Below, one piece after another: positions 1 through 18,735 of a DNA stretch of 64,000 nucleotides (the stretch's first letter is position 1; each line of letters starts with the position of its first letter). The stretch is taken from positions 24,300 to 88,299 of the forward strand of contig QCFN01000001.1 of the NCBI GenBank assembly GCA_003280245.1, given 5' to 3'. The DNA comes from Prochlorococcus sp. AG-363-J23. Lineage in GTDB: Bacteria > Cyanobacteriota > Cyanobacteriia > PCC-6307 > Cyanobiaceae. Below the pieces are notes generated by a model. That model ran no database searches. It worked only from the letters and a program-made list of their open reading frames with translations, and was not told the origin of the DNA. The translations under genes and the position numbers were made by a program.

Positions 1-1292
1 TGACTCAAGTTTTTTAATAATTTTGAAGGAGGTTTTTGCTCTGCAAATAAGACTTTCACATTTTCTTCTTTTAGCTCCCCTAATACTGTGGCAATAGTCT
101 GAGGCCTAAGGCTCCCTAAATAACCCATAAAATCTAATAAGCTAATAGTTTTCAAACCAAATGCATCTCCGTAGTATTCCATAGCTTTGTGCTTAGAAAC
201 GATCGTCCTTTGATTAGAAGGGATTGTGGATACTTGTCTTTGAGTCCATTGATCTAAATCTTCTAAAAGAGAATTAATAGATTTAGATCTTTCACTTACA
301 ATTTTCCTATTTTCTCTATCAAAAAATGAAATGTTCTTCTTGATGCTTCTAGAAATAATATTTCCCATCTTGATAATGTTATGAGGATCATGCCAGATAT
401 GAGGATCGGCTCCTCCATGGTTATGGTGATGATGATCACCGCCATCGTCTGGAATTTGGGCTATCGGTTCGACATCATTGCCTGAAACATCTTTAAAGAA
501 ATGCTCATCGGCTTCAAACTCAAAGGGCATATGCTCAGTAAAGAATACATATTTACCAGCTTTTTTAATTTCTACATTGAATGTTGTGCTTTCTTTCCTC
601 TCATTAAATGTGAGAACATATGCTTTTTCCTGTGCAACAAGTTGATCATTATTACGTTTAAATTCTGAATTGTTAGATTCTAATAATTCTTCAGCAAGTT
701 CTTCTGATGCTTCAATATCACCAGACTTGAGAATGACCATTTTCATAGCAGGGTCGGCATAGTCTCCATCGACTTTTGCAAAAGACCATGTGTAGGTTCC
801 TGGTGAAAGTTCAAAGACACCAGCCCATTCAAAAGCTTCTTCTCCATGACCTTTGCCGTGGTCATCATGATCGTCATGCTTCGCAGATGAGAGTTCATCA
901 TGGTCGTCATGGTCATCAATCTCTATTGCACTTACACCGACAACAGTAGTTATGGGTTTATCTTGCCAATTTTTTATTGAAGGAGTCATCTCTTGACCAA
1001 GGGTGAAAACTTGACTTGCATTATTTAGAGCTTGAGCCTGTCTAGGAGAAAATTTGACATCATGAACGTCTACTTTTCTGCCAATCAAACACTTAACTTG
1101 CTTTGAAGGTGGAGCAATTGCCTTGACCAAGTCACAGACCAGCGGCTCTATTGCAACTATTGGTTTCTCCTTGGCTTGTACTCCTTGAGCCGTTCCAGAT
1201 AAAAAAACCGCTCCTGCTAAAAGATAAGTTTTTAAAATTGATCTATTGATCGAAAGCCTTCTCTGGCTTGATTGCCCTAAGTGATCTGGCAT
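1..1292 (-). CDS. znuA: Zn/Mn-family (TroA/cluster-9) ABC transporter periplasmic substrate-binding protein, ZnuA-like. The C-terminus runs off the window. It carries a His/Asp-rich loop plus an inserted domain of about 125 aa.
   Basis: Own translation of the minus strand from the ATG at 1292 gives MPDHLGQSSQRRLSINRSILKTYLLAGAVFLSGTAQG (signal peptide) ... DDHDDHDELSSAKHDDHDDHGKGHG ... DDGGDHHHHNHGGADPHIWHDPHN. The frame stays open to position 1, so it is absent from the ORF track (no stop in the window). It is divergent from znuC/znuB. Confidence 0.8.
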   Translation of the reverse strand, partial: MPDHLGQSSQRRLSINRSILKTYLLAGAVFLSGTAQGVQAKEKPIVAIEPLVCDLVKAIAPPSKQVKCLIGRKVDVHDVKFSPRQAQALNNASQVFTLGQEMTPSIKNWQDKPITTVVGVSAIEIDDHDDHDELSSAKHDDHDDHGKGHGEEAFEWAGVFELSPGTYTWSFAKVDGDYADPAMKMVILKSGDIEASEELAEELLESNNSEFKRNNDQLVAQEKAYVLTFNERKESTTFNVEIKKAGKYVFFTEHMPFEFEADEHFFKDVSGNDVEPIAQIPDDGGDHHHHNHGGADPHIWHDPHNIIKMGNIISRSIKKNISFFDRENRKIVSERSKSINSLLEDLDQWTQRQVSTIPSNQRTIVSKHKAMEYYGDAFGLKTISLLDFMGYLGSLRPQTIATVLGELKEENVKVLFAEQKPPSKLLKNLS

Positions 1293-1318
1293 GCGAAGCG
1301 AACGAGTGTTGATACAAA

Positions 1319-1333
1319 CGATAATGGTTATCA
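1319..1333. promoter_or_regulatory. Candidate Zur box in the znuA/znuC divergent promoter
   Basis: The sequence is cGATAAtggTTATCA, a 6-3-6 palindrome. It lies in the 90-bp gap between the znuA start (1292) and the likely znuC ATG (1383). It matches the cyanobacterial Zur consensus TGATAATNATTATCA and shares 14 of 15 positions with the site at 5503-5517. Confidence 0.6.
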
Positions 1334-1382
1334 TTTCTAATCGGCAAGCATATTGTTGTTTCATCTGGAAATACTCTTATCC

Positions 1383-2087
1383 ATGGCCAGTTTGATTGCT
1401 GAAAATTTGACATATTCCTATTCAAGGCAAAGTCATCTTGTTTTGGATGAGGTCTCAGTTGAGCTCAAACCTGGAACTATGACTGCACTTGTTGGTCCAA
1501 ATGGTGCTGGTAAGTCAACATTGTTAGGTCTACTCCAAGGCCGCAGTAAGCCTAATAAAGGTGAAATCACCATTGATGGTCATCCGTTGTTTGATAGTCG
1601 ATCCCAAGTTGCTCTAATGCCTCAAAGAGGAAGGTTGAACTGGAATTTTCCAATTACTGTTGAAGGCTTGGTCTCTTTAGGGCGAGTGAATCATTCAAGA
1701 TCAACATGTTGTGAACTAGAAGCTGCACTACAAAGAGTGGGAATATCTGATTTAGCAAATAGGAGACTCGATTCCTTGTCTGGCGGGCAACAACAAAGAG
1801 CATTACTTGCAAAAACTTTAATGACTCCATCAAAAATAATTCTTCTTGATGAACCTTGTTCTGCATTAGATCCACCTGCAAGAGAAGATTTTCTATTAAT
1901 CATTCGCCAGCTGGCTGATGCTGGGCTATCACTTTTTATTAGTAGTCACGATTGGGGGATATCTCTAAACGCGTATGACAAGGTCGTTGCTTTGGATAAG
2001 CATGTTTTGGCTTCTGGTACTCCTGAAGTAGTGAAAGAAAAACTTGATTCATTTAGCTGTATGCATAGTAGTTATTGCCGTGCTTAA
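1383..2087 (+). CDS. znuC: Zinc ABC transporter ATP-binding protein
   Basis: Walker A GPNGAGKST, signature LSGGQQQR and Walker B ILLDEP are present. The track ORF starts at a TTG (1353). The ATG at 1383 (MASLIAENLTYSY) is the more likely start. Confidence 0.85.
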   Translation: MASLIAENLTYSYSRQSHLVLDEVSVELKPGTMTALVGPNGAGKSTLLGLLQGRSKPNKGEITIDGHPLFDSRSQVALMPQRGRLNWNFPITVEGLVSLGRVNHSRSTCCELEAALQRVGISDLANRRLDSLSGGQQQRALLAKTLMTPSKIILLDEPCSALDPPAREDFLLIIRQLADAGLSLFISSHDWGISLNAYDKVVALDKHVLASGTPEVVKEKLDSFSCMHSSYCRA

Positions 2088-2880
2088 TGTTTACTCAACC
2101 CTTGAAACTTGGTGGTTAATTCCTTTTTGCGTAATTCTATTGACAGGAATACTTTGCCCGGCCATGGGGACTATATTAATTACCCATAAGCGACTTCTGC
2201 AAGTTAATTTAATCTCTCATTGTGTCCTGCCAGGATTGGTTTTGGCAGTAGCACTTGGCGTTAGTCCTTCCATAGGTGGTGTTTTTAGTGGGTTGTTTGG
2301 ATCTCTTGCAGCAGAAGCATTGACCAACAAAAAAAATGAAAATTATGAAGCAATAATGAATACAATTCTTGCTAGTTCTCTTGGTCTTGGTGTTCTTCTT
2401 ATACCTCTTCTTGGAATTAGGATCGATTTAGAATCTGTTCTATTTGGTGATTTATTAACTGCAAATTTAGGCGACTTATCAAGAACTATTATTTCTTTCT
2501 TAGTATTTATTTCTTTGATACTTTTTGGTTACGAAAAGCTTGTACATATTGGATTAGACCAGGAAGGGGCTTCTGACAGTGGCATAAAAGTATCTTATTT
2601 AAATTTACTGCTTGGTCTTACGAGTGCGCTTGTTATTGTTAGTTCAATGTCTGCAATTGGAGTCATTCTTGTAATTGCTTTGCTTTCCGCTCCTGCCTTA
2701 TTAGGTCTGCAACAAGCCCCATCTTTACGGGTTGCTATGGTTAGATCTGCAATCTTTGGATCTTTAATATCAGTTTTAGGTTTTTTGCTTGCGATTGCTT
2801 TCAATATGTCTCCAGGTCCCCTTGTTGCTGTTTTATGCATTCTCTTAATAGGATTGTTACCTAGAAAAAGAAATAATTGA
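2044..2880 (+). CDS. znuB: Zinc ABC transporter permease (ABC-3 family)
   Basis: Polytopic hydrophobic protein immediately after, and overlapping, znuC. The start is uncertain: TTG at 2044 or a GTG near 2079 that overlaps the znuC stop. Confidence 0.8.
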   Translation: MIHLAVCIVVIAVLNVYSTLETWWLIPFCVILLTGILCPAMGTILITHKRLLQVNLISHCVLPGLVLAVALGVSPSIGGVFSGLFGSLAAEALTNKKNENYEAIMNTILASSLGLGVLLIPLLGIRIDLESVLFGDLLTANLGDLSRTIISFLVFISLILFGYEKLVHIGLDQEGASDSGIKVSYLNLLLGLTSALVIVSSMSAIGVILVIALLSAPALLGLQQAPSLRVAMVRSAIFGSLISVLGFLLAIAFNMSPGPLVAVLCILLIGLLPRKRNN

Positions 2881-3020
2881 TCTATTTTCTGTAATTAGAC
2901 CTACGGAGTTATTGGCTTGCTTTTAAACTAAAAGGCAGAGCTTTGTGCATGAAAAACCTCTGACTAAGCAGGGTTGTAACAAGGTTGGAGTAGAAGGAGG
3001 ATTTAGCGGTTGTATTCGAT

Positions 3021-4100
3021 TTATGAAAATCCTTTAGGAGATGTTTTTATGCGATTTTTAAAATCCCAAACATTAATTCCTCCGTTTGCATTAACGGCTG
3101 CTAGAGCACAGTCATCAGGTCGCCAGGCAATTGCTTCGACACGGCCTCCTACGAATGCACCGCCAAGTGGCTCACCATGACCATTCTTCTGGAGAAGCCA
3201 TACAAAAACCGAACCATCCCTTGATCCAGAGGCTAATAGTGACCCTCGATTGGAGAAAGCGAGGCTGGAAATCGCTCCAATGTGAAGGTCTAACTCTCCT
3301 GGTACCGTTCCTTCAGGACCATTACCTTGAAAACTCCAAACTGTTATTCGTTCACCTCCTCCAGTGGCAAGAACCATGCCGGTTTGATCAAATGCTAGTT
3401 GACTTGGCTTGCCTGGATACCCAGTCATCTCAGCATCTTGCGCAGTTGAACGTCTCCAGAAATGAACAGAATTGTCTTGACTACCGCAAGCCACAATGTC
3501 GCCATCAGGGCTAAGCACCATCGACACGAGTGAGCCTTGCCATTCCAGCTTCTGATTGACCTGGTCACGAATTACATCGTAAAAAGTGACTCGGCCGTAG
3601 CATGCAGTTGCTAATTCATTCGACTTTGACCAAGCAACCGCACTGACAGTACTCAGATGTTTATCTGAGCGCCAATGTTCTTTTCCATCAGCACCAAAAA
3701 CATAGACGTAATGCGAAAAGACTACGGCTAAGAATTGTCCATCTGGTGACCATTGGAGATGTTCGACCCATCCTTTACCGATTTCCAATGCCTTATTTGA
3801 CTCACCTTCTTTACTCTTCCAAATCAGAACACGTCCATCCTGACCTGCAGTAGCAAAGATATGTCCATCTGGATGAATGGACATTGCAAGTATGCCACCT
3901 TCATGGACTTCCTTTCGATGCCAAAGGGTGGTTCCAGACTTGCCTTCAAAGGCATAAAGGCCTCCTGCAGCATCACCCACCAAAAAAGCATTACCTTCTA
4001 GTGCCCATCCGCAAACAATGACATAATCGGCGACTTCAGTACTCCACCCCTCGTGAAGCATACCCCGACCCTGAGGGCCGAGTTCTCTTATGTCAGGCAT
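3021..4100 (-). CDS. WD40-repeat beta-propeller protein
   Basis: The protein contains reiterated units of the form DG.(I/L)A(T/S)(A/G)(G/S)(Q/R)DG.V..W, for example ATAGQDGRVLIWK, ACGSQDNSVHFWR and ASGSRDGSVFVWL. Its ATG (4098-4100) lies inside the last codons of the upstream COG0523 reading frame. Confidence 0.85.
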   Translation of the reverse strand: MPDIRELGPQGRGMLHEGWSTEVADYVIVCGWALEGNAFLVGDAAGGLYAFEGKSGTTLWHRKEVHEGGILAMSIHPDGHIFATAGQDGRVLIWKSKEGESNKALEIGKGWVEHLQWSPDGQFLAVVFSHYVYVFGADGKEHWRSDKHLSTVSAVAWSKSNELATACYGRVTFYDVIRDQVNQKLEWQGSLVSMVLSPDGDIVACGSQDNSVHFWRRSTAQDAEMTGYPGKPSQLAFDQTGMVLATGGGERITVWSFQGNGPEGTVPGELDLHIGAISSLAFSNRGSLLASGSRDGSVFVWLLQKNGHGEPLGGAFVGGRVEAIAWRPDDCALAAVNANGGINVWDFKNRIKTSPKGFS

Positions 4101-4290
4101 TTGTCGAACCCACTTTGCAAGGCCTCTTCATCAAGGTTCCGACCGATGAACACGAGTTGATTTCGGCGAGGTTCATTACCCCACTCCCTATCAGGCTGTG
4201 AGGTAAAGAGCATATGTACACCTTGAAAAACTATTCTCCGCGGCTCGCCTGCATAACTAATAAACCCCTTTGTCCTAAAATATCTACACC
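4088..4290 (-). pseudogene. Displaced C-terminal remainder of the COG0523 CobW_C domain (other frame)
   Basis: The 76-aa ORF 4088..4318 reads ...RTKGFISYAGEPRRIVFQGVHMLFTSQPDREWGNEPRRNQLVFIGRNLDEEALQSGFDKC. This is the canonical end of CobW_C. It joins frame A right after ...EKGVDI if one extra base is assumed in the homopolymer at 4277-4280. Confidence 0.6.
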
Positions 4291-5469
4291 TTTTTCTGAG
4301 AGGAGACGCCCTAACCACTTATTGAGTTTTTCTGGATCGACATCGCCTAATCGCTCGATAGCAATTGAGCCCACTTCATCATCGTGTTCGTGTTGTGCTA
4401 CCCAAGTTCGCTCTGCTATAGGAGGAATTAAAAGATCATTCTGTTGATTACTTCCTGACTCAGAAACTGAAGTATCCATTCTTCTCACTTTGATATCGAA
4501 TTCCTCGGCCGTGTGCTGAGTGAATAAACCAAGATGTCCAGATTTTTCAACTTCAAGCGAAAACGACTTGCGCCCCTCGGACTGCAGCTGAAGGTTCACA
4601 TGCTTGTTCAGTGGGATTTTGTCACCTGGATGTAGGAGTTCAGCAGATTCAGCGTAAAGTCGCACACATGATTCTGCACCTTCATTGAGAGATTCTTCGT
4701 CTGTGCCTTGGTCAGCTACAACGACGAGAGACATCATCGGGTCAGGCCCCTCTTCGAGACTAACTTCGTAACGACCAGGCTCAAGTTGAAAAACACCCGT
4801 CCACTCAAATGGATACTCTGGTTCTAGGAAGCTGGGGCGGCGTTCCAAAACCTGGTCAAGGTCAAAAGCACCGAGGTTTAGAACAGTTTCAACAGAGACA
4901 TCCGCTTGCTTACTACGTACGACACGCGCCATACGGTTCATGTCACGTAGTCGTGCTTCAAGAGTATCGAGCGACTCATCAGAAACGAGATCAGTTTTGT
5001 TCAGAACCAGTACGTCGGCAAATGCAACCTGCTCGGAACTCTCATCACTGCGTCCCAATTGCTGATCAATATGAGCTGCATCAACAAGCGTAACGATCCC
5101 ATCGAGTGAAAATTCTGAACGAATTTCATCGTCCATGAAGAATGTTTGAGCAACAGGACCGGGGTCGGCAAGCCCCGTGGTCTCAACCAATACATAATCG
5201 AACTTATCGCGTCTCTTCATGAGGTTCCCAAGTACGCGAATTAGATCGCCTCGAACGGTGCAGCAAATGCATCCGTTGGACATCTCAAAAACCTCTTCGT
5301 CAGCATTGATCACCAGTCCCTGATCAATTCCAACTTCACCATATTCATTCTCAATAACAGCAATTCGTTTACCGTGTTCTTCGCTAAGAATCTTGTTAAG
5401 AAGAGTCGTCTTTCCAGAACCAAGAAATCCAGTAAGGATTGTTACGGGTACTTTTTGAGTACCTTTCAT
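4231..5469 (-). CDS. COG0523 (CobW/YjiA/ZigA-like) metallochaperone GTPase, as far as the first frame stays open
   Basis: P-loop GFLGSGKTT, metal motif GCICCT and Walker B/G4 LVLNKTD are present, followed by the start of a CobW_C domain (HEHDDEVGSIAIE...KLNKWLGRLL). The frame ends prematurely inside that domain. Confidence 0.8.
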   Translation of the reverse strand: MKGTQKVPVTILTGFLGSGKTTLLNKILSEEHGKRIAVIENEYGEVGIDQGLVINADEEVFEMSNGCICCTVRGDLIRVLGNLMKRRDKFDYVLVETTGLADPGPVAQTFFMDDEIRSEFSLDGIVTLVDAAHIDQQLGRSDESSEQVAFADVLVLNKTDLVSDESLDTLEARLRDMNRMARVVRSKQADVSVETVLNLGAFDLDQVLERRPSFLEPEYPFEWTGVFQLEPGRYEVSLEEGPDPMMSLVVVADQGTDEESLNEGAESCVRLYAESAELLHPGDKIPLNKHVNLQLQSEGRKSFSLEVEKSGHLGLFTQHTAEEFDIKVRRMDTSVSESGSNQQNDLLIPPIAERTWVAQHEHDDEVGSIAIERLGDVDPEKLNKWLGRLLSEKGVDILGQRGLLVMQASRGE

Positions 5470-5502
5470 AGCCTTAAAAGCAGAAAAACAGCTCGATTAT
5501 AT

Positions 5503-5517
5503 TGATAATGGTTATCA
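5503..5517. promoter_or_regulatory. Candidate Zur box upstream of the COG0523-WD40 operon
   Basis: The sequence is TGATAAtggTTATCA, with perfect 6-bp arms. It lies 34-48 bp upstream of the COG0523 ATG (5469). Confidence 0.6.
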
Positions 5518-5689
5518 TAATCATGCTTATTTCCTTTTCAAGACGTGCTTCACCCAAGCTTTCTTGGGTAGCAAATATGTATAAAATCTAGATTTTGCGT
5601 TTTTTATCTCATAGGTTAATGCCAACTTTGAGCTGCTCGGCAAGCTCTAAAACTCAGATCGTCATTTCGCTACTGGATATTGATCGAAT

Positions 5690-5727
5690 GATTCAGCCAA
5701 ATCTCTCGTCTGAAATCTGCCTGATAT
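5690..5727 (+). repeat. Candidate left att-like direct repeat
   Basis: GATTCAGCCAAATCTCT...GCCTGATAT here is colinear with GGTTTGCCAGAATCTCT...GCCTGATAT at 10261-10292. Confidence 0.3.
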
Positions 5728-5735
5728 GTAGAGAC

Positions 5736-8081
5736 TTAGAAGCACTCCAACCTTTTTAAGGTGCTCTCTATTTCCGTTTTCGCTATATCTTTCCCCATTG
5801 CTTTGATCCATCTTTGGATTTCTGGCACTGTACTTTTTCCATTCTCTAAGGCAGCTTCAACCATATCTTTTATATAGCAAAGCCCTCCTTTCTGCATGGT
5901 GTGCATAGTGTGCAGGGTTTTTTCTGAGACTTCTTTTATATCTTCTTTTTTAAATTCTTTCTCTTTAGAAGAAAAGTTAGAGAGATGACCCTGCATACCC
6001 TGCATAGGTAAATGAGATGCACTTCCCCGCCTTGGTTCTGGTGGTGAAGGGTTGGAATGCAGGGTCGGGCTGGGTGCAGGGTCTAACCCTGCATCTGCAA
6101 CTTTGAGTCCGAAGAAAGAGGCCAGGTCAAAGTCTTTCAATGGACTGATTTTGTAGATGATCCCTGCACTACTTCTCTGACTCTGCACTTTTGGAATCTT
6201 TTTAATTTGGAGCCCAAAGTTTTTCTGACTGGGCTTTTTTATGCCTTGCTCAACAGTCCATTCGACAAATTCGTTATATAGCTTTTGGGCTTGTCTTTCT
6301 CCACCTTCCTCACATTTTTCAAGAATGAATCGAAGGTATGGATTCTGATCGAGGGCGTTTTCTATAGAAGCTTCTCTAACTGCTTTAACTTCTCCTCTTT
6401 TCTTGAGAGTGTTTTGCATCTCGGGTTCGAGCATGCTCCAGCACCATTGAAAGATTCCCTCAATTTCATCTCGTAATTTTTGTTTTAAGGACGGATCTGG
6501 TGAAGCTGCTGATCTTTCAATTCTGAAAGTAACCATCCTTCTAGTAAGACCTTCTTGCCCACCTCCACTTATGGAAGGTTGGTCATTAAATGCTCTCCAA
6601 ATAACTACTCCTAGCCTTGCATCGAAAGGATCAACGTATAGGCGTTTTACAGGTACAAGCTCATTACTAACTATTGAATTGAACATTCCTGGATCTTTAT
6701 AATGTCCGCTTGCATCGGCGTCTATACCGATCTTTTTTCCTATTAATTTAAATCGTTCAGTGTCCGAGGAAAAGGTAGCCGCTCTTGCTGTTCCAACAGC
6801 TTCTTTTCCGACTACATGTTGGAGGACTTCCAGCAAAGTTCCTTTTCCGCATCCTTTAGGCCCGTATAGATCAAAGAAGACTTCTAAGAGAAAAGGTTCA
6901 TCAATTTTCTTTGCACTAACTGACCAACGAAATGCGCTCCTAAGTAATTGAATAACTTCCTCATCTCCTTTAAAAGTTTCTGCTAGGAACTTCAACCAGC
7001 GTGGACATTTAGCTTTTGGGTCATAGTTGAATTTGAAGCTATGAGTCAGATAATCATCTCTTCTATGGAGTGGCTCAAATTTCTGGGCATTTAGGTCATA
7101 TGTCCCATTTTTAAAGCTCATTAAGTGGGACTGATTCCATGTTTGGTGCTTTAGGCGAGCTAGTAGTTCATCCTTCACTCCATTTAAAAGATTGCGGCTT
7201 CTTTTATCCCAAAGCATTAAATCCATCCATTCATGAAGAGGTAAATCCAGAGCAGTTTTTGGATTCTCTTCTAAATACTCCCAATGAGTTCCCGCCCATT
7301 TGTATAACCCGATAAGAGGGTTAAAGGCATAGTCTTTTTTAAAAATTGGAGTCGCTGTAACTGCCTTGTAATGTGTTTCTGATGTCCCATTAGGCTCAGG
7401 TTTCCAGGTCTTAAAGGGTTGAGCTACATCAACCAATTTCTGAAAAGCTTCTCTTCCGTGGCGACAAATAAAGTCATCGCCTCCATTCTTTGAGCCATCT
7501 ATTTCGCAAGGCAAAAGCACTATTCGCACAATTGCCCCTTTCTCTTTCAATGCATTGCAGAGACCATCCAGAGCATTTCGAACGGTGGTTTTAGTAGTTA
7601 CGTCACTATCAAAAACTATAAAAACTTCTCTCTTATCCCAATGAAGTTTCTCTAGTTCAGGCAGAAATCCTGAGCGATTATCCCTCCAGCAATCAACTCC
7701 ACTCAGTCCAATGGTTGGGAATCCGTTATGAGTTAATGAATCCGCTTTCTTCTCACCTTCACCAATAAAACTCCTCTTATGAGGTTTAAGAGAATTCTTT
7801 GGAAGTAGCGGAGAAAAATATGGTCTACATCCTCCATTTTTTGGAGATAGATATTTTGCATCTTCTGTCTGTCCAGGGTCAGGTTTGAGTCGATAGAAGG
7901 GTTTTCCATTGTGCAAATAAGGTTTTCCTTCTGGATCTTTGAAAAGAACAATCCATCCTGAATATCCATAACCAGTGAGATTCTTAGCCTCACTTTTCGT
8001 GACGCTGCGATAGTCCAAGAGATGATGAACCGACTCTGGGATTCCAGACTCAACTAGTTCTTGTATATGTTTTTTCAGCAT
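5736..8081 (-). CDS. Replicative primase-helicase: Toprim/DUF3854-like N-terminus plus P4/D5-family NTPase C-terminus
   Basis: Toprim-like motifs GEGEKKADSL and VFIVFDSD are followed by Walker A GPKGCGKGTLLEVL. The 781-aa size and architecture are typical of phage, plasmid and satellite primases. Confidence 0.7.
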   Translation of the reverse strand: MLKKHIQELVESGIPESVHHLLDYRSVTKSEAKNLTGYGYSGWIVLFKDPEGKPYLHNGKPFYRLKPDPGQTEDAKYLSPKNGGCRPYFSPLLPKNSLKPHKRSFIGEGEKKADSLTHNGFPTIGLSGVDCWRDNRSGFLPELEKLHWDKREVFIVFDSDVTTKTTVRNALDGLCNALKEKGAIVRIVLLPCEIDGSKNGGDDFICRHGREAFQKLVDVAQPFKTWKPEPNGTSETHYKAVTATPIFKKDYAFNPLIGLYKWAGTHWEYLEENPKTALDLPLHEWMDLMLWDKRSRNLLNGVKDELLARLKHQTWNQSHLMSFKNGTYDLNAQKFEPLHRRDDYLTHSFKFNYDPKAKCPRWLKFLAETFKGDEEVIQLLRSAFRWSVSAKKIDEPFLLEVFFDLYGPKGCGKGTLLEVLQHVVGKEAVGTARAATFSSDTERFKLIGKKIGIDADASGHYKDPGMFNSIVSNELVPVKRLYVDPFDARLGVVIWRAFNDQPSISGGGQEGLTRRMVTFRIERSAASPDPSLKQKLRDEIEGIFQWCWSMLEPEMQNTLKKRGEVKAVREASIENALDQNPYLRFILEKCEEGGERQAQKLYNEFVEWTVEQGIKKPSQKNFGLQIKKIPKVQSQRSSAGIIYKISPLKDFDLASFFGLKVADAGLDPAPSPTLHSNPSPPEPRRGSASHLPMQGMQGHLSNFSSKEKEFKKEDIKEVSEKTLHTMHTMQKGGLCYIKDMVEAALENGKSTVPEIQRWIKAMGKDIAKTEIESTLKRLECF

Positions 8082-8257
8082 GGGAAAAACCCCAGTCCCG
8101 CCCTCTGTTCCGCCATGCGGGATATTCCTTTTGGATAAATTCCTTTTATGGGAATCGATTTAAGAGACTTAGATTTCTGCGTATTACGCAGAGAATCAAT
8201 TATTATGGGATCTAAGACGTTACCTTGACCCTCAGCTATTCGGTTGGGGGTCATTTT

Positions 8258-8497
8258 TTATTCCCCCGAAAGGATCGCAATTCCCTTTTTGCTAATCCTT
8301 CCTCGAAGGTGAAATTGTTTTTTTACACTTTCGATGTCCCAACGAATCGGGGAGTTTTCGTGTTGCCCGTAGATGTAATCAATCCCGCCAGCTAAAAAGC
8401 CACCTCGGTCATCTCGAGCACGCATAAGAGTTTGCGCAGAGATATTTAGCCGCCTTGCAGCTTCAGGGGTTTTAACCCATTCAATTTGTTCAGACAT
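8258..8497 (-). CDS. Small HTH DNA-binding protein (excisionase/MerR-like)
   Basis: The 79-aa protein contains WVKTPEAARRLNISAQTLMRARDD, an HTH pattern typical of Xis/AlpA-type proteins. It lies between the integrase and the primase. Confidence 0.5.
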   Translation of the reverse strand: MSEQIEWVKTPEAARRLNISAQTLMRARDDRGGFLAGGIDYIYGQHENSPIRWDIESVKKQFHLRGRISKKGIAILSGE

Positions 8498-8503
8498 TTA
8501 CGA

Positions 8504-8698
8504 CTAAAAAGTAATGCCCTCTTGCTCCAAGGCTGCTCTTAATGACCTAGGAAAAGTGGAATACTTTTGCTTCCATCTTTCAATTACGCCTGTTTCACCA
8601 TTAGTAATTCGATCCTTGACGAACTGAATAGTCGCAGGAATGGAATCAGGGTTTTTGCCCTTTTTTGCTTTTAGTGGTTTACGAGCGACGGCCATCAA
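8504..8698 (-). CDS. Hypothetical small basic protein of the element
   Basis: A 64-aa ORF, co-oriented with and 6 bp upstream of the HTH gene. No recognisable motif. Confidence 0.35.
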   Translation of the reverse strand: MMAVARKPLKAKKGKNPDSIPATIQFVKDRITNGETGVIERWKQKYSTFPRSLRAALEQEGITF

Positions 8699-8878
8699 TC
8701 AACCTCCCAAGAGGAGTGGATATTTAGCCGTCACTTGGTTGCCCTTATGACCTTCAGAGATTGTGCAGTCGGTTACTTGTCCGAAGCCCCTCTCAGCTTT
8801 GCGAACAAGCTAGCGAACGCTATATGTGGTGTCAACTGAATTGCACCATGATAATGCGAAACCATATGCGAAATCTGT

Positions 8879-10177
8879 TCATGCTTTTACCTGTCCAGCT
8901 CTAAAACGTTCGCCTGCTGCTATTAACTCTTGATCCTCCATCCATCCGCCGTAATGCTTGCAGTGAGTTTTTAGATCGTGGCGCATTAGTGCTGCTGTAG
9001 CTCTTAATGAATATGGATTCTTCGACTCAATATGTGATCTCCAGGCATAGGAGTGACGCAAGCTATAAACCTTTAGCCCGTTTTGTTTGGCAAGCAGTTT
9101 CCAATAGGGATCTCTTTTTAGGAGCTGTCTTAGTGCCTGTCCAACCTGTTTAAATTCTCCAGTCTCTTTGGCTTTTTTAATAGCGTTTCGTACAGCTAAA
9201 GGAAGTTGTACTTTCCCACTTTCATATAGAGCCACTAGTCTTGCGCCTTCTCCAGGTAGGGAAGCTAAATCAATTGCTTGAACCTTTTGGGGAGGCTTAC
9301 TAATTCCAATCGAGTTCTCGTTATTTTTCACATGCCCAACAAATAAGTTTGAGTCTCTTACCTCTAAGACTGCTAGTTCAGAAGGTCTCAATCCATAAAG
9401 CGCAACTAGTCCTACTGCTAAATAAAGACTGTGTTTATTGTTCTTCTTAAGTGATTCCAAGAGACCTTCAAGTTGATCTCCCTTTAGAGGGACTGTTAAA
9501 GATTTCTGCTGAGACTTACCAATCAAGAGCCTCTTTAGCTCTTTCATTTTTCTGCTGTCACTACTTGGAGGCAGGAACCTATCGGGAGCCCCTTTTTCTT
9601 CAACAGCAAATCTGAGAAAAGCTATTACATCAACAAGTTGTCTCTTTCTTCCTTCTCCTCCCTCAGGACATTTTGCAAAATGATCTTTTGAATATTGGGT
9701 TAGTAGTTCTTTCCAATTACGAGGTTTAGGGCTTCTTCCTATTGTTTCCAAAGCCCTTCTTAAGCGAGTTCTTAAATCGGTAAGGGTTGATTCCTTTCTG
9801 TTCCCTCTGCTTTTAACAAATTCATCAGCAATAAATTTCCAGCCTTTATGGTTCTCACTGTTATCAGTCTTGCTCTCTACATCTGAACCTATCCGTAAAT
9901 CCTCTGCCTCTCTAAGACTAGTTACGTTGCCTTCGGTCAGAAGTCTTTTGAGTTCTGCAACGGCAGTGATAATCTTGCTTTGGTTACGGCTTGACCAGTC
10001 GTAAGGGATGAAGACGGAACTACGAGGGTTCTTCTTACCAAGACCATCTTGGAATTGATAAGTAACCTGCGTTTTTTCGACTCCTCCAATTTCTCGGCCT
10101 CTTAATTGCCATCCTGGCCCATTTTCGGTTCTGATGGTATGGCGTAACAAAGTTGCCCAATTTTGCCGAGAAGCCAT
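8879..10177 (-). CDS. int: Tyrosine recombinase / phage-type integrase
   Basis: The C-terminal catalytic region reads LYGLRPSEL ... SLRHSYAWRS ... LMRHDLKTHCKHYGGW (R, H-x-x-R-like, H and Y). The gene lies 136 bp from a tRNA gene. Confidence 0.8.
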   Translation of the reverse strand: MASRQNWATLLRHTIRTENGPGWQLRGREIGGVEKTQVTYQFQDGLGKKNPRSSVFIPYDWSSRNQSKIITAVAELKRLLTEGNVTSLREAEDLRIGSDVESKTDNSENHKGWKFIADEFVKSRGNRKESTLTDLRTRLRRALETIGRSPKPRNWKELLTQYSKDHFAKCPEGGEGRKRQLVDVIAFLRFAVEEKGAPDRFLPPSSDSRKMKELKRLLIGKSQQKSLTVPLKGDQLEGLLESLKKNNKHSLYLAVGLVALYGLRPSELAVLEVRDSNLFVGHVKNNENSIGISKPPQKVQAIDLASLPGEGARLVALYESGKVQLPLAVRNAIKKAKETGEFKQVGQALRQLLKRDPYWKLLAKQNGLKVYSLRHSYAWRSHIESKNPYSLRATAALMRHDLKTHCKHYGGWMEDQELIAAGERFRAGQVKA

Positions 10178-10260
10178 GTCTTGATTGAATTAGTTTGGCG
10201 GGATCCGTGGCGGGATTTAGCCATATTAAAGACAATCAAGCGGTATCAAGCAAGATACGG

Positions 10261-10292
10261 GGTTTGCCAGAATCTCTAAGACCGCCTGATAT
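10261..10292 (+). repeat. Candidate right att-like direct repeat
   Basis: See 5690-5727. This copy ends 20 bp upstream of tRNA-Ala. Confidence 0.3.
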
Positions 10293-10312
10293 CACTGCCA
10301 AAATCCACATAC

Positions 10313-10385
10313 GGGGCCATAGCTCAGCTGGTAGAGCACCTGCATGGCATGCAGGGGGTCAGCGGTTCGAGTCCGCTTGGCTCCA
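10313..10385 (+). tRNA. tRNA-Ala (anticodon GGC), no encoded CCA
   Basis: Folded by hand: GGGGCCA-TA-GCTC-AGCTGGTA-GAGC-A-CCTGC-ATGGCAT-GCAGG-GGGTC-AGCGG-TTCGAGT-CCGCT-TGGCTCC-A. The G3:U70 alanine identity pair is present and all four stems are perfect. Confidence 0.9.
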
Positions 10386-10845
10386 CTAAGATGTTTGTTT
10401 ATCAATCAAACTTTTATTCTATTTATTATTTTAATCTACTAATAGAGTCAATTATTAACTAATTAATTCTATTTACCAGAATAAAATCTAACAAATACAA
10501 AAGGGACCACCGAGCTATTCGCCTATAGCTGTTCAATCTATCCTCTAATTCCAAGTTTTTACTTAAAGAAATTAGATAATCAACGGAATCAGAAATATTA
10601 TCGATGTATTATTAATAATGTATTAATATCTAGTCAATAACTCTAAAATGTTTCCATTTTATGATTGTAGGTATTGCTATATCATATAACTTATAATTTT
10701 TAATTATTCGAAGCTATCCGATTTCTGATTACTCGTTTCAATTATTTTGGAAATTGTTAAGATATCGAATCGTTTGTAAGTTAATAATTTTGACTTGCAA
10801 TGATCCCAAGAAGATGTAGGTTTAATAAAATTACAATTTTTTCCT

Positions 10846-11058
10846 ATGAATCCTAGAGAAATGATTAGGGCTCATGCCTATCCCACTTTGGCTTTGGTAA
10901 GTACTATTAGCCTTACTGTTATTGCAACTTCCCTTGTACCTGTGGCTAAATGGATGAATATTCAGAATCAGTGTGTTGAGAGAATATTAAAGATTGATGC
11001 CAATAATATGCCAGCTCTCTCATCTCAGGTATGGAGCTGTAATGGAAAGGGCAGTTGA
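10846..11058 (+). CDS. Hypothetical small membrane protein
   Basis: A 70-aa ORF with one hydrophobic helix (PTLALVSTISLTVIATSLVPV) in the AT-rich tRNA-proximal segment. Confidence 0.3.
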   Translation: MNPREMIRAHAYPTLALVSTISLTVIATSLVPVAKWMNIQNQCVERILKIDANNMPALSSQVWSCNGKGS

Positions 11059-11315
11059 GCTTCAAGTTTTTAATTTATTCTCTAATTCTAATTTCCTTAA
11101 TACATCCATCACAAACTTTATGTAAGATATCACTATTCTACTATTACTAACGTACATACAAAGCGATTATTTTCTTTGCCAATAACTTTATTAGTCATGT
11201 CTCCAGAGAACCCATTAAACTTACTTTTTATGTTTCTATATTATAATTTTATGTGTTTATTATGATTATTTCATGTTAAAGACCTAGTCTTAAATGAGTC
11301 CCCTCGAATAAGTAG

Positions 11316-12224
11316 ATGCTATTACAAGAAGAAATTTCATGGCTAATTCCATTACTACCATTTTGTGTAGCAAGTTTTATTGCCTTATGTCTTATTAGCT
11401 TTAATCGTACAATGAATCGATTAAGCAAGCCTGTATTTTTCTTATCTGCTTCCTCTTTATTAATACCAGCAGTTATTAGTTTATTGTTAACCCGAGAATT
11501 TTATGGCGGTGAGATAGTTAACGAAACACTTTTCATGAATGAATTACATATTTCTGGATATTCTCTATTAACTGGCTTTTTTATCGACAGGCTAAGCACA
11601 AGCACCCTCTCTATATTAACTTTTACCTTGCTAGCCTTAGTTTTAACATCTAATTCCTTTTTATTTAGAAAGGATGGTTACGTAAGATTTTTTATATTTC
11701 TGGGCTTGTTTTCTAGTTCTTGTTTAGGCTTAGCAGTAAGCGTTAGTTTATTAGAACTATTTTCCTTTTGGGTTCTACTAGGTCTCTTTTCATATTATCT
11801 TAAGGATAATTGGAGAAAGTTTTACATAGGAACTAATAGTAATTCTAACTTATTCTTTACTATAGATTTACTCTCTAATTTACTATTTCTTATTGCCGTG
11901 TACATATTATATGGAATAACTGGATCTTTTGATTTCGAGAATATTAAAGATGTAATTCACTCAAGAATACTTTCTGATACCCTATCTTTGTCAAATTCAA
12001 TACTTTTAACTACTCTATTTTTTGGTGCAATATTTGCAAGAATATTAGAGACTCCATGTTACATTTTAGATAAATTCTCCCCAGGTCTTCCAAGAGATAA
12101 ATCTATATTTATTTACTTTTTTATAGTTTTCATAGTATGTACTTTTGTCTTTATAAGGATTGAACCTATTCTTAATGAAATATCATTGGCATATTATCCA
12201 GAAGGCATTTTTAGTATTTTTTGA
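11316..12224 (+). CDS. Divergent, truncated NuoL/NdhF-like (proton-antiporter family) membrane protein
   Basis: The alignable N-terminal signature is SWLIPLLPF...FFIDRLSTSTLSIL...KDGYVRFFIFLGLFSSS...LLELFSFWVLLGLFSYYL...ILYGITGSFDF. Compare NuoL: LDGLSL...EGYSRFFAY.NLF...LGWEGVGLCSYLLIG...ILY...GTLNF. The conserved WE and Lys positions are replaced. Confidence 0.55.
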   Translation: MLLQEEISWLIPLLPFCVASFIALCLISFNRTMNRLSKPVFFLSASSLLIPAVISLLLTREFYGGEIVNETLFMNELHISGYSLLTGFFIDRLSTSTLSILTFTLLALVLTSNSFLFRKDGYVRFFIFLGLFSSSCLGLAVSVSLLELFSFWVLLGLFSYYLKDNWRKFYIGTNSNSNLFFTIDLLSNLLFLIAVYILYGITGSFDFENIKDVIHSRILSDTLSLSNSILLTTLFFGAIFARILETPCYILDKFSPGLPRDKSIFIYFFIVFIVCTFVFIRIEPILNEISLAYYPEGIFSIF

Positions 12225-12399
12225 GTATTTATTAAATATAATTGTGCCATTTAAAATTATTTCTCCTAAGTAAATAAATATCGGAATGTATTAACCTAAA
12301 ATTCATTCAGATGTCTATAACTAATTCAGAATTTGTATATTAGGATCAATTTAACTTATCTCTCAACTTCTCTTTAGATATAATCACTTCATATACCTC

Positions 12400-12699
12400 C
12401 TAGTTAATCCCGAAGAGTTTTCTAGTTACTGGCTCTCCTTTGTATAGTAGTTCAGATAAAATCAAAAGCAGAAAACTTATCATTGCTAATCTTCCATTTA
12501 CCAGCTCAACATTAGCGTTAAATCCAAAAACATTTTTGACCTCTTTATTGTCATTATCTATCCATTCCCAGGAGTTCTCCTTCTTTGAGATTTCTCTGGT
12601 CGCTTTTTGATTATTTTCTTTCATAGATTCTTGGACCTCATCTCCTTCAGTAAGCATCGGAGAAGATTGATCATTTGATTCTTCTTGGTTATAAGTCAT
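12400..12699 (-). CDS. hli: High-light-inducible protein (HLIP, CAB/ELIP/HLIP family) with an acidic N-terminal extension
   Basis: The C-terminal helix FGFNANVELVNGRLAMISFLLLILSEL carries the E..NGR.AM.(G/S)F chlorophyll-binding motif. Confidence 0.8.
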   Translation of the reverse strand: MTYNQEESNDQSSPMLTEGDEVQESMKENNQKATREISKKENSWEWIDNDNKEVKNVFGFNANVELVNGRLAMISFLLLILSELLYKGEPVTRKLFGIN

Positions 12700-12817
12700 T
12701 TTTAGGAAATATTATATTTAATTATAATAGTCCTATTAGATACTAAAAATAATCCAAAATCATAACTCACCTTAATGCTTTGTGATTATTTTTTAATTGT
12801 TTTGAATTGTCTACCTT

Positions 12818-12955
12818 TTACTTTCGCTTGACTTTTATTCTTTTAATAAGCTTTTTGGCTTTTTTTTTAGCATAATTAACCTCAACTATGTTTAAACGGA
12901 ATGTTAGTATTGATAATAAGAAAACCAAGATAAACAATAGAAAATAAATTTCCAT
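12818..12955 (-). CDS. Possible 45-aa single-pass membrane peptide with a Lys/Arg-rich tail
   Basis: Own translation: MEIYFLLFILVFLLSILTFRLNIVEVNYAKKKAKKLIKRIKVKRK. It is below the ORF-track size cut-off and has no homology support. Confidence 0.25.
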   Translation of the reverse strand: MEIYFLLFILVFLLSILTFRLNIVEVNYAKKKAKKLIKRIKVKRK

Positions 12956-13080
12956 ATGAGTAGAATTAATAACTGATTTTAGTTTGTATTATAATCAATT
13001 AAGTATGGTTTGGTTTGCTTTGAGATGATTCTATAGATTGGTCAAGAGTTCTTATAATGTGAATTAAACATAATTTATTT

Positions 13081-13932
13081 TTAATTATTTATATTGTAGG
13101 GTCCTAGATATGTCGAGCATAGTGCTCCAGAATGAGCTCCTAGGCTAATTGCTTGTTCAGCAGTCCATCCAGCAGCTAAACCTATAGTTACTCCAGCAGC
13201 AAAGCTATCTCCACATCCATATGTATCAAGTAATGGAGAATTAATAGAGGCAGCTTTATATCTACCAAATGGCCATGCAATGCCTCCCTTCTCTCCTTCG
13301 GTAGCAATTATAAGTTTAGGCTTAGGTTTAAGAATATTTCTATTCACTCTTTCCCCAGGATCAAGTCCACTTCCAATTAATGCATCAATCCTAATATTTG
13401 ATTCTTGTAATGTTTTTATTCCTACTCTTGGAGTGACAGTTAAGACTTTGCTTTGTCTTGCATGACTTAACGCATCTTTATCACCTGCTGAAATAAAGAT
13501 GCCATCACATTTAATTAGTTTTTCCCATTGCAATTGTTCTCTTCCTCTTGGCTCAAGTCTTTTTCCTATTACAGTTATTGCTCGATCACCCTTTTCATCA
13601 ATAAGGCTTATACCACTTCTTGTCTCTTGGTTGCGCCAGCTGATTTGTAGCTTTAAACCCATTCCTTCTAGGATTCTCTTAGATTCTTTGCCTTTATCAT
13701 CATTTCCTAGTGAAGTAAAAAATGTAACTTCTTGCTTAAGTATGCTTGCCATTTTTATTGCAGATACAGCTCCTCCTCCAGCGGGACCTTCGAAATATTT
13801 AGTGGCATGTGAAATTTTTCCTGGTTCAGGTAGAGAATCAACCTTTAGAAAGGTAATCCATTCAATATGTCCTACTACTGCCATTCTTAATTTGGGAATA
13901 CTAGGTAATTTATTCTCAGGCCAAATACGCAT
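13081..13932 (-). CDS. PfkB-family carbohydrate/nucleoside kinase
   Basis: Ribokinase-like motifs are present: N-terminal GGGAVSA and C-terminal DTYGCGDSFAAG. Confidence 0.75.
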   Translation of the reverse strand: MRIWPENKLPSIPKLRMAVVGHIEWITFLKVDSLPEPGKISHATKYFEGPAGGGAVSAIKMASILKQEVTFFTSLGNDDKGKESKRILEGMGLKLQISWRNQETRSGISLIDEKGDRAITVIGKRLEPRGREQLQWEKLIKCDGIFISAGDKDALSHARQSKVLTVTPRVGIKTLQESNIRIDALIGSGLDPGERVNRNILKPKPKLIIATEGEKGGIAWPFGRYKAASINSPLLDTYGCGDSFAAGVTIGLAAGWTAEQAISLGAHSGALCSTYLGPYNINN

Positions 13933-14097
13933 TTGCTTTAGGGATATTTACTAAGAGTAAATGTTTATTAGTTTTTTGCAAGAAATAGAATTTCTGACAT
14001 CTTATTTCTCTATTTACTAGTTTGTATTAGTCTTTTCTGAATTTAAACTGTAGTTTATGATAATTTTGATTATAATATAAAAATATGCATTTTTGAT

Positions 14098-14553
14098 ATG
14101 GTCGATTGTTCTATATGTTTTCTTCATTCAGATCTTTATTCTCAGTCTAAATATCAAATTAAAAGAACCTCTATTTGGACTCTTAGGCATCATCCTGATC
14201 CAGCACCTTTGCCAGGTTGGTTGATTCTGGATTCAAATAGACATTTGTCAGGTCCAATTGAATTCTCGACTTCAGAATCATCTTCTTGGGGTAATGCAGT
14301 ATCTATGGCGAGCAAAATTGTTCAGAATGTTACTCAATGTGATAGGGTATATTTTATTGCTTTTGGAGAAGGTGCTAGGCATTTGCATTTGCATTTGATT
14401 CCACATATGAATGGAAACACGTGCACAAAGTCTTGGAATATAGCTGATTATTATCGTGATGTGCTTAATAATCCTAAAAAGGCTGTTGATCCTAAATTGG
14501 TCAAAAAGATAGTTTCCCAATCTCGAGAAAATGCAAGTTCGATTAATTTTTAG
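14098..14553 (+). CDS. HIT (histidine triad) family hydrolase
   Basis: Triad ARHLHLHLIPH is present, with an N-terminal CSIC. Confidence 0.65.
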   Translation: MVDCSICFLHSDLYSQSKYQIKRTSIWTLRHHPDPAPLPGWLILDSNRHLSGPIEFSTSESSSWGNAVSMASKIVQNVTQCDRVYFIAFGEGARHLHLHLIPHMNGNTCTKSWNIADYYRDVLNNPKKAVDPKLVKKIVSQSRENASSINF

Positions 14554-15772
14554 AACTTCTTTCTGATAGTGACCTTCCTTTCCATGTCCAGCCTTTACCC
14601 AAAATCGTTATATATGTGGAATTAATTCCAATTAAACTAACAATTATTCCACCGACCCACATTAACCACCAGTATTTCATTGATAGGTTGAAATTTCTAT
14701 ATACCCAAAGCCGGAGGTAAAATTGGAGGTAGATTGGCATAACTGCTATTAATATCATAGTTATCTTTAGCGCGTAACTTATGGGATTTATTAGAGAATA
14801 ATAGATAATGAATGGTTCTATTATTATGCTGAGTGAAAATATGTTGAATACTATAATTGATGCTCCTATTGATTTTAAAGGATTTCTATCTAATCCTAAA
14901 AACCAGTTTTTACTCCATCCTTCCCAAAGCGAAGGGAGATCATCATACATCCTTAATTTTATAGAATCTATTCCTAATAGGAAATTTAGTTTAAGTCCAT
15001 TATCTTTGATATTTTTTGCTAGAGCCAAATCCTCAACTACTTCACCTGCTAATCTTCTATGCCCTCCTATTTTATTATATGATTCACGTTTAAAAAGCAT
15101 AAATGGACCAGCAGCAAATGCTTTATTGCTGGAATCTTTATTTATTTCTTTTATTGGAAATCCGATGCTTAAAAGACAGCTTATCACAGGTTGAACTAGC
15201 CATTCAGATAAACAACTACATTCTATTTTTGGAGCAAGACTAAGTAGGTCTAAATCTTTTTCAATAGCATATGAAATGGCCCTTGATAAGGTATCATTTC
15301 TTAATTCTGTATCAGCATCTACAAATAATATCCATTCACTATTTGATGCTTCAGATGCAATAGTGCAAGCCCAGTTTTTTCCTACCCACCATTCATCTCT
15401 TGGCCTATCACCAGCCGAAATTATTTTGTACCTACTTTCTGAAAGTTTATATCTATTAGCAAGCTTTTTAGCTATTTCGACCGTTTCATCAGTGCTACAG
15501 TCGTCTACAAGAATTACTTGCCAATTTGAGCAAGGATTTTTATTTTCCATAAGACTTGATATACATGTTTCAATTTTTTTAGCCTCATTATATGCTGGAA
15601 CTATTATTGTTAAGGAAGTGGTTCTTTCTTTTATTTCTTCTTTCAGATTGGTTTTGAGCTTTGGAGCATCTTTGAATTGATAAATTAAATTTACTATTAA
15701 AAATGATAATCCTGAACATAATATAAGTTCTAGGGCTATTAGATATATAATTACATGATTTGATTCGATCAT
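14543..15772 (-). CDS. Membrane-bound family-2 glycosyltransferase
   Basis: The GT-A motifs IIVPAYNE, ILVDDCSTDET and VDADT are flanked by transmembrane segments. Confidence 0.75.
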   Translation of the reverse strand: MIESNHVIIYLIALELILCSGLSFLIVNLIYQFKDAPKLKTNLKEEIKERTTSLTIIVPAYNEAKKIETCISSLMENKNPCSNWQVILVDDCSTDETVEIAKKLANRYKLSESRYKIISAGDRPRDEWWVGKNWACTIASEASNSEWILFVDADTELRNDTLSRAISYAIEKDLDLLSLAPKIECSCLSEWLVQPVISCLLSIGFPIKEINKDSSNKAFAAGPFMLFKRESYNKIGGHRRLAGEVVEDLALAKNIKDNGLKLNFLLGIDSIKLRMYDDLPSLWEGWSKNWFLGLDRNPLKSIGASIIVFNIFSLSIIIEPFIIYYSLINPISYALKITMILIAVMPIYLQFYLRLWVYRNFNLSMKYWWLMWVGGIIVSLIGINSTYITILGKGWTWKGRSLSERSSKN

Positions 15773-15780
15773 TTTAGTAG

Positions 15781-17920: not shown

Positions 17921-18000
17921 TGTGTTTTCTTCCTCACAAGTTGCATTGTCATTAATAGATGTCAGCCTAGGGATTCTTTTTGAATTTCCTTTTTGTTGTG

Positions 18001-18612: not shown

Positions 18613-18670
18613 ATAACTCTTGGTTTCTGCTTGTTAATAACATAACGCATAACTAAAATTTGCAAAAAAA

Positions 18671-18693: not shown

Positions 18694-18735
18694 TAAAAAC
18701 AAAGTATTTAGAAAAAATATTCTAATTGATTTGAT

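Follow-up and report, generated by a model that had tools for sequence, protein, structure and literature searches.

A mobility module upstream of tRNA-Ala(GGC) in Prochlorococcus sp. AG-363-J23 is probably one end of a 22.7 kb tycheposon

Results

Gene content of the locus

Upstream of the transfer RNA (tRNA) gene for Ala(GGC) in Prochlorococcus sp. AG-363-J23, a single-amplified genome (SAG) of clade LLVII, lies a compact set of mobility genes, which probably forms the integration and replication end of a larger integrated element of the tycheposon type. The window analysed comprised 64,000 nucleotides (nt) of contig QCFN01000001.1 and corresponded to G000:C1:24300-88299, where G stands for a genome and C for a contig; C1 coordinates refer to the same contig beyond the window. 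Five open reading frames (ORFs) of the module were co-oriented on the 5' side of the tRNA and all of them were open (Table 1). The integrase gene (int) starts at a distance of 135 nt from the tRNA and is directed into the element, with the gene of a helix-turn-helix (HTH) protein and a primase-helicase gene coming next. A preliminary description of the locus had listed the integrase and the genes of 64, 79 and 781 amino acids (aa), which were all recovered in place; the 59-aa ORF was additional. Its remark that the module lies on the uncommon side of the tRNA, upstream of the 5' end, was also borne out.

Table 1. Features of the tRNA-Ala(GGC) locus (window coordinates unless indicated)
Feature	Position	Strand	Evidence or remark
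Tyrosine integrase, 432 aa, facing inward from the tRNA end	8879..10177	minus	PHROG_1, profile-structure match, catalytic residues
tRNA-Ala(GGC)	10313..10386	plus	ARAGORN; Rfam 65.5 bits; only tRNA in the window
attR core, tRNA nt 1-39	10313-10351	plus	39/39 match, blastn-short
attL, exact copy of tRNA nt 1-39	G000:C1:11874-11912 (window -12425 to -12387)		Outside the window, 12.4 kb before its start
int-tRNA spacer, P arm and presumed tRNA upstream/promoter region	10178..10312	plus	Element-borne; GGCGGGA at 10197 and 10209; CTGATATCAC at 10286
Primase-helicase, 781 aa	5736..8081	minus	DUF3854 (Toprim-like), D5_N, DUF5906 / P4-type SF3 helicase
59-aa ORF, function unassigned	8075..8254	minus	Absent from the preliminary description
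79-aa HTH protein, candidate excisionase or regulator	8258..8497	minus	Sub-threshold HTH_17, HTH_29 and MerR matches
64-aa ORF, no family match	8504..8698	minus	Adjoins int in G020 too (64% identity)
Repeat of ~100 nt at the seam of COG0523 cassette and primase module	5620..5719	.	Recurs elsewhere; no Rfam family
znuA, running off the window start	within 1..2880	minus	Pfam ZnuA
znuC	1353..2087	plus	Pfam ABC_tran
znuB	2044..2880	plus	Pfam ABC-3
WD40 protein, cargo	3021..4100	minus	Pfam
COG0523/CobW GTPase, cargo	4231..5469	minus	Pfam, 2e-62

Attachment sites of the element

The first 39 nt of the tRNA recurred as an exact copy before the window start, and the two copies formed a direct repeat with a spacing of 22,738 bp. 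The distal copy was the sole tRNA fragment in C1:1-36000. The spacer between int and the tRNA carried the motif pair GGCGGGA-N5-GGCGGGA, which occurred exactly twice in the 1.31 Mb assembly (C1:34496 and C1:11978), about 104 nt before the tRNA and 66 nt after the attL core, respectively. The decamer CTGATATCAC was likewise common to both sites and at attL came after the GGCGGGA pair. The same pairs of arm motifs were present in G020 (AG-409-N21) and G319. Because of the exact tRNA repeat and the unique paired arm motifs, the two sites were assigned as attL and attR of one 22,738 bp element. Window 5714-10351 is probably the mobility core of this element, an integrated and att-bounded tycheposon of about 22.7 kb and of the tRNA-Ala (YR_A) kind.

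The element had originally been drawn as a unit of about 4.6 kb between a COG0523 gene and the tRNA. No att repeat was found at the left edge proposed for it, and the sole att partner lay 22.7 kb away, outside the window. Partial copies of the tRNA were absent from the window (5' 25 nt or 3' 30 nt, up to 3 mismatches), as were direct repeats involving the tRNA from window 5000-20000, and a search with a word size as low as 7 detected no tRNA fragment from C1:11913 up to the tRNA. An imperfect repeat bracketing the short unit (5690-5730 / 10255-10292) had a score of 11, which 14% of shuffles and 16% of other windows attained as well, and the 9-nt match GCCTGATAT (5719 and 10284), considered as an att repeat, was at chance level.

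A self-contained, cargo-less element of about 4.6 kb would require that the distant partial tRNA came from an older related element and that its own distal att was lost or too short. Such a unit would fit the sharp breaks in homology at the left seam, where similarity to G020:C15 stops at window 5666 and similarity to G048 starts at 5714, and the occurrence of the WD40-COG0523 cassette elsewhere without the module. It would also fit the closest int-HTH module (G020:C31), which lies on a 5 kb contig with other replication genes, so that the core swaps modules, and the near-identical copies of the 4.6 kb module (0-6 differences, <=3.3 kb) in marine metagenomes of four studies. Nevertheless, the chance-level bracket repeat and the lack of any nearer tRNA fragment make this quite unlikely, as do the documented distal ends in the integrase clade, all of which have tRNA nt 1-39/44, and the arm-motif pair with exactly one genomic partner, 22.7 kb away.

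In the comparison with metagenomes, the 3' flank (10681 onward) had no coverage and the summed depth of the module fell below that of the flank, neither of which counts as evidence. In metagenome run X2, contigs joined window 7909 to 15146 and 15960 to 9980 via 19-32 unrelated letters; these joins are possibly chimeric.

Cargo between the attachment sites

From attL to the tRNA, the 22.7 kb unit contained two small ORFs, a phosphate-stress cluster (OprB/SLH porin, Crp-type regulator, OmpR-type (PhoB-like) regulator, PstS, ChrA, MFS, GAPDH and ArsR), a zinc cluster (ZnuABC, WD40 and COG0523) and the replication/integration module. The earlier observation that capsid, cargo and defence genes are missing holds within window 5690-10385, but the conclusion that the element is cargo-less does not, since the att-bounded 22.7 kb carries the phosphate and zinc clusters. 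Genes for packaging or capsid redirection (terS, MCP, sid/psu-like) or for phage interference were detected neither in the module (Pfam, PHROGs and NCBIfam) nor among the cargo ORFs (Pfam).

The neighbour of the module had been correctly recognised as COG0523/CobW, but its reading as host flank is not supported, as it lies inside the att-bounded unit. Its interpretation as a conserved host neighbour of tRNA-Ala was rejected: there was no tRNA-Ala near cobW in seven relatives, and in complete genomes the cobW and tRNA-Ala loci were 144 kb and 787 kb apart.

The WD40-COG0523 cassette (window 3020-5666) was 98.5-98.8% identical at the nt level in G020, G021 and G022 and 95% identical in G002, with core genes of the genomes sharing it only about 72-75% identical, which looks like recent transfer or gene conversion of the cassette. 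The znuC and znuB genes beside it showed only 59-64% aa identity in G021 and G022. Upstream of COG0523, the palindrome TGATAATGGTTATCA at window 5505-5519 was Zur box-like by eye, and such a candidate Zur box would fit a zinc regulation of the cassette.

Comparison with relatives

A search with the P'-arm pattern retrieved AG-409-J19 and AG-409-N21. In AG-409-J19, the gene order was ftsH-argF-lexA, an int remnant, a partial tRNA and then DNA close to that of AG-363-J23: 1578 nt with 99.2% identity to C1:11874-13450 and 3387 nt with 97.7% identity to C1:20691-24077, up to the contig end. On its contig C38, a further 2144 nt were 100% identical to window 1-2144. The exceptions within the distal 12 kb were a pstS stretch at 87% and two indels. 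The ftsH-argF-lexA flank of AG-409-J19 was only 72% identical to that of AG-363-J23 at the nt level, and 97.7-100% identity next to such a core flank indicates a recent transfer of the distal ~12 kb between lineages at the same site.

Parts of the module were found in other combinations. G048 carried the same primase gene (90.4% nt identity, from window 5714) beside tRNA-Pro(tgg) and with a different integrase; its neighbours were a 108-aa ORF, a 212-aa ORF in the position of the regulator, and pstS, chrA, MFS and gap genes. This arrangement indicates that the primase and the phosphate cargo travel together with interchangeable integration modules. The converse was seen in G020:C31, where int (87%) and the HTH gene (85%) were shared and the replication genes were others. 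In place of the D5/P4 primase-helicase, relatives carried VapE or AAA_25 helicases.

Genes of the module

The 432-aa protein matched Pfam Phage_integrase only below the cut-off (E=0.01), as a divergent integrase, and PHROG_1 integrase at 4.5e-9. A search of PDB sequences with the integrase alone gave no match; a profile of 15 sequences of the integrase family matched the XerC-like structure 4a8e (8.6e-5) across the RHxxA...HxxxxxxxY region. In the alignment of these 15 sequences, R264, K284, R374, H400/H405 and Y409 were invariant and the first His of HxxR was replaced by Tyr371 throughout the family. The protein showed the catalytic pattern of tyrosine recombinases (R...K...HxxR...H/W...Y), and it was called an integrase on the basis of the PHROG_1 match, the profile match to 4a8e and the invariant residues. 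The ratio of nonsynonymous to synonymous substitutions (Ka/Ks) relative to the closest relative, the 87%-identical G020 copy, was 0.12. Disabling substitutions, named in the preliminary description as a sign of a relic, were not found in the integrase; the catalytic residues are kept and Ka/Ks is low.

The 781-aa protein matched TIGR01613 (P4-family primase C-terminus) at 3.6e-39 and a PHROG DNA primase at about 1e-47, and its primase motifs were kept in the alignment of 7 homologues. A further sign of a relic would have been synteny of the four genes in all relatives; the primase gene was present in only 12/401 family genomes and G001 and G002 have a 5' side without integrase. At these integrase-free sites, the tRNA follows lexA by ~60 bp.

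Among the small ORFs, the 79-aa HTH gene keeps its place after int in 5'-side and 3'-side elements alike; its Ka/Ks relative to G020 was 0.23, and its profile gave only noise against PDB. The 59-aa ORF was 56% identical to the N-terminal region of a 318-aa ORF in G020:C31. For the 64-aa ORF, Ka/Ks was 0.59 relative to G020, which leaves its coding status uncertain. The base composition of the module (0.41-0.43) was host-like (genome value 0.391 +/- 0.039). As a host-like value is expected for elements circulating within the genus, composition was dropped as a test of foreignness.

Single GGCGGGA motifs also occurred inside the module at window 7290, 8096 and 8383 (minus strand), and in G020 (locus L017, 2562/2574) the homologous spacer, which separates the HTH gene from the replication genes, had a full pair. 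The integrase or the HTH protein could bind at these internal copies.

Integrity of the 22.7 kb unit

Several observations weigh against the 22.7 kb unit as one mobile element. The AG-409-J19 assembly is without the int end and the sharing covers the distal ~12 kb only, while the WD40-COG0523 cassette stands in G020, G021 and G022 without the mobility module alongside. Cargo from C1:18282-29756 was found at other chromosomal places in G018, G012 and G004 at a core-like level of divergence (72-78%) and with permuted blocks, and the 22.7 kb could be a mosaic assembled over several steps. The junction of COG0523 and primase has so far been seen in this single-cell assembly alone: a 30-mer spanning it had 0 matches in an exact-match scan of metagenome contigs, and among the metagenome contigs listed, none bridged the left seam. 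A circular excised form, suggested earlier as a check, did not appear either. Exact-match scans gave 0 matches for the attP junction in metagenome contigs and for attP-like and P'-arm patterns in viral contigs, and searches of viral contigs with the integrase and its family gave 0 confirmed matches, all of them weak negatives. Finally, Ka/Ks of the primase was 0.69 relative to the G048 copy (pN 0.083, pS 0.117), with all family motifs intact. This hints at relaxed constraint, and relaxed or diversifying selection could underlie the difference between the two copies.

These data could also be explained by a fixed accretion island, in which the DNA between lexA and the tRNA was piled up by several integrations, recombinations and rearrangements, the att pair has ceased to mobilise the block and the genes of the module decay as passengers. 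The mosaic similarity to relatives (99%, 87%, gaps, 97.7%), a block order permuted relative to G018 and G002, the int pseudogenes or remnants common at the site (G022, G260, AG-409-J19 and AG-409-N21), the Ka/Ks values of the primase and the 64-aa ORF and the failure to find a free form in viral and metagenome contigs all agree with it. An island of this kind is nonetheless unlikely, because the module ORFs are all open, the integrase has every family-invariant residue under a Ka/Ks of 0.12, the primase motifs are conserved, the 39-nt repeat is perfect with intact arm motifs and the 97.7-100% identity to a genome with a 72% core flank requires recent transfer. In the favoured reading as one att-bounded tycheposon, its current mobility is plausible.

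The left seam itself was occupied by the ~100 nt repeat. Copies of window 5620-5719 were present in G000:C29:4575-4673 (94%), G022:C45:1781-1880 (96%, just after a 412-aa int-like ORF) and G020:C5; window 5548-5671 recurred at G020:C17 and window 5536-5617 at G048:C16:19077-19158. Such repeats (window 5536-5719) may be linkers where modules recombine. With the junction inside a multi-copy repeat, the second copy of which lies on contig C29, and with the junction 30-mer absent from metagenome contigs, the adjacency of COG0523 and primase might be a chimera of the single-cell assembly, from which the extent of the element could not be read. This is very improbable: the repeat is short (about 100 nt), both of its sides otherwise fit one element, AG-409-J19 independently gives the order lexA, attL, phosphate cluster, znu, and G048 independently ties the primase to the phosphate cluster.

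Another repeat of ~200 nt was noticed in the distal part of the element (G000:C1:13310-13512), at G000:C29:9304-9500 and 11012-11200, and in G048 (locus L087, 8211-8380). The two C29 copies were mutually inverted and the G048 copy lay in the 3' flank of the primase.

Integrases on the 5' side of the tRNA

Full-length homologues of the integrase (32-87% identity) were widespread but patchy in the family and adjoined tRNA-Ala(ggc), Arg(tct) and Val. The int gene was divergent on the 5' side of the tRNA in the three closest relatives with genomic context (G319, G260 and, as a remnant, G022), and the four 5'-side integrases were united in a single clade (100/100 support). Six more distant relatives (41-47% identity) were located just 3' of tRNA-Ala, Arg or Val and co-oriented with the tRNA. 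The two sets differed in the repeated part of the tRNA: every documented distal end in the 5'-side clade had nt 1-39/44, whereas the 3'-side relatives had a partial tRNA of nt 27/28-73/74 at their far ends (G022, G019 and G167). G260 supplied a complete and independent second example, in which lexA is followed by the pseudogene of an int, then by tRNA nt 1-44 as a partial copy, an element of 12.2 kb (cargo, VapE, HTH gene and int) and the full tRNA.

The repeats 1-39/44 and 27/28-74 overlap only in the near-palindromic anticodon stem-loop, which is presumably the region of crossover. The region upstream of the tRNA was kept across the 5'-side loci (G020, G022, G319 and G260), unlike at the integrase-free sites of G001 and G002, which indicates that the element brings the tRNA 5' half together with an upstream region. 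A scan for promoters upstream of the tRNA found no sigma-70-like site and was uninformative.

Both sides of the tRNA were occupied in two genomes. G022 had the 5' int remnant and a 4.6 kb 3' insert (G022:C15; locus L057, 8242-13500), encoding a LodA-like oxidase and DAO and ending in a partial tRNA (nt 27-74). In G260:C1, the 5'-side element was accompanied by a 3'-side partial tRNA (nt 31-73) 0.9 kb away.

Flanking regions

In relatives, the 5' neighbours of the tRNA are ftsH, argF and lexA, with only about 60 bp separating lexA from the tRNA in G001 and G002. In AG-363-J23, ftsH-argF-lexA was located at C1:1055-4620 and the tRNA at C1:34612, so that about 30 kb lies on the 5' side of the tRNA. 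Rfam analysis of window 1-16000 reported the tRNA only, plus a sub-threshold antisense match overlapping it.

Between lexA and attL, a 7.2 kb block of low guanine-cytosine (GC) content (0.30-0.33; G000:C1:4620-11873) carried sugar-modification genes (RgpF-like, DegT, epimerase and radical SAM); neither an att site nor an integrase of its own could be recognised in it. Located 3' of the tRNA, window 10387-17600 also had a low GC content (0.27-0.33) and was syntenic with G001, of the same genus, at 37-61% aa identity, including a 302-aa NuoL-like ORF, hli, pfkB and the following genes. Owing to this synteny and level of identity, the region was regarded as old and diverging and not as a recent insertion.

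Discussion

The locus conforms to an already described type of element. Tycheposons of Prochlorococcus were defined by Hackl et al. (bioRxiv 10.1101/2020.12.28.424599; later Cell 2023) in a set of 623 genomes, by a lineage-specific integrase that faces inward and adjoins a replication module, by hallmark replication genes and by cargo. In the same work, Ala-ggc is one of seven island tRNAs, the YR_A group numbers 50 elements and duplicates about 40 bp of the tRNA, phosphate and zinc are among the cargo classes named in Fig. 2, and the supplement distinguishes hel_IRVE-D5, VirE and DnaB helicase/primase classes. AG-363-J23 belongs to that data set (supplementary file 3, clade LLVII), as do AG-409-J19 and AG-409-N21, both LLVII SAGs.

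The kinship with tycheposons proposed in the preliminary description is upheld by an integrase, HTH and primase-helicase core at tRNA-Ala(GGC) with an exact 39-nt repeat of the tRNA, in agreement with the duplication of ~40 bp at this island tRNA. The AG-363-J23 element shares with tycheposons the host clade and data set, an inward tyrosine integrase at one end with a small replication module alongside, the D5-type helicase/primase hallmark, phosphate and zinc cargo, and modules exchanged between elements. The hallmark replication and mobility genes were matched by Pfam domain names and not by the HMMs of the paper. Cargo for local adaptation or phage interference is contained in the 22.7 kb unit and would be lacking from a 4.6 kb one. 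The element departs from the published description in that the tRNA 5' half is duplicated and the insertion is on the upstream side. No statement on such a placement was found in the main text of the preprint by Hackl et al.; its Fig. 6b treats 5' and 3' tRNA segments. The use of the tRNA 5' half by a clade of integrases is the less ordinary feature of this element.

An attB in the 5' half of a tRNA is, according to a review (PMC8371274), typical of the pTN3-like integrases of Thermococcales, unique among archaea and "seldomly encountered in bacteria". With these integrases, as presumably in the AG-363-J23 element, attB is the tRNA 5' half and the rebuilt tRNA is expressed from element DNA. 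They differ in being "suicidal", with att inside int and int split upon integration. In AG-363-J23, int remains one uninterrupted frame of 432 aa after integration, and the att core starts 135 nt upstream of its start codon, so that att is not inside int as in the pTN3/SSV type. The hosts belong to another domain of life and no sequence relationship was shown.

Satellites of the P4 or PICI type resemble the element in a tyrosine integrase at a tRNA site, an HTH/Xis-like protein and a P4-family primase-helicase. They differ in their genes for capsid size, packaging (terS, MCP) and interference. Pfam and PHROGs gave no such match for either the 4.6 kb module or the 22.7 kb unit, and the cargo of the latter is metabolic. 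Classical tRNA islands (the sublocation classes of Williams 2002; Islander, PMC4383910) share a crossover in the anticodon stem-loop, here a presumed one, and a displaced tRNA fragment at the far end. They usually restore the 3' part of the tRNA and keep the host promoter, whereas the AG-363-J23 element supplies the 5' part and, presumably, the upstream region.

The interpretation starts from what was observed directly, namely the repeat, the arm motifs, the gene content, the cargo sharing between distant genomes and the clade pattern. In the mechanism that we propose, the integrase would exchange strands in the anticodon stem-loop. The attP of the 5'-side clade would consist of the tRNA 5' half and its own upstream region, unlike that of the 3'-side relatives. 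Integration would then leave the element on the 5' side of the tRNA, which once rebuilt would be transcribed from element DNA, its promoter presumably being supplied by the element. Each new arrival would shift older material towards lexA. The element may still be able to excise.

More tentatively, and with somewhat less than even confidence, we suggest that one clade within the mostly 3'-side tycheposon integrases switched to the 5' half of tRNA-Ala(GGC) while keeping the crossover in the anticodon stem-loop. With an attP carrying the 5' half and its own upstream region, elements of this clade would replace the promoter of the tRNA, and a second island would grow between lexA and the tRNA in LL-clade Prochlorococcus. 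If true and undescribed, this would be a natural case of "side switching" of an att site and of a mobile element taking over the expression of a host tRNA. Among bacteria, integration on the 5' side is uncommon, and islands can grow on both sides of tRNA-Ala. Related 5'-side and 3'-side integrases on the same tRNA also make a clean pair for studying what sets the direction of integration.

For the locus itself, the analysis corrects an artefact of the window edge, as the seeming "empty vehicle" is the driving end of one that carries a load. In this deep-water Prochlorococcus lineage, the clusters for phosphate stress and zinc uptake are placed between intact attachment sites. For clade LLVII, near-identical cargo next to a core flank of only 72% identity lends support to the published view of tycheposons as carriers of nutrient-acquisition traits.

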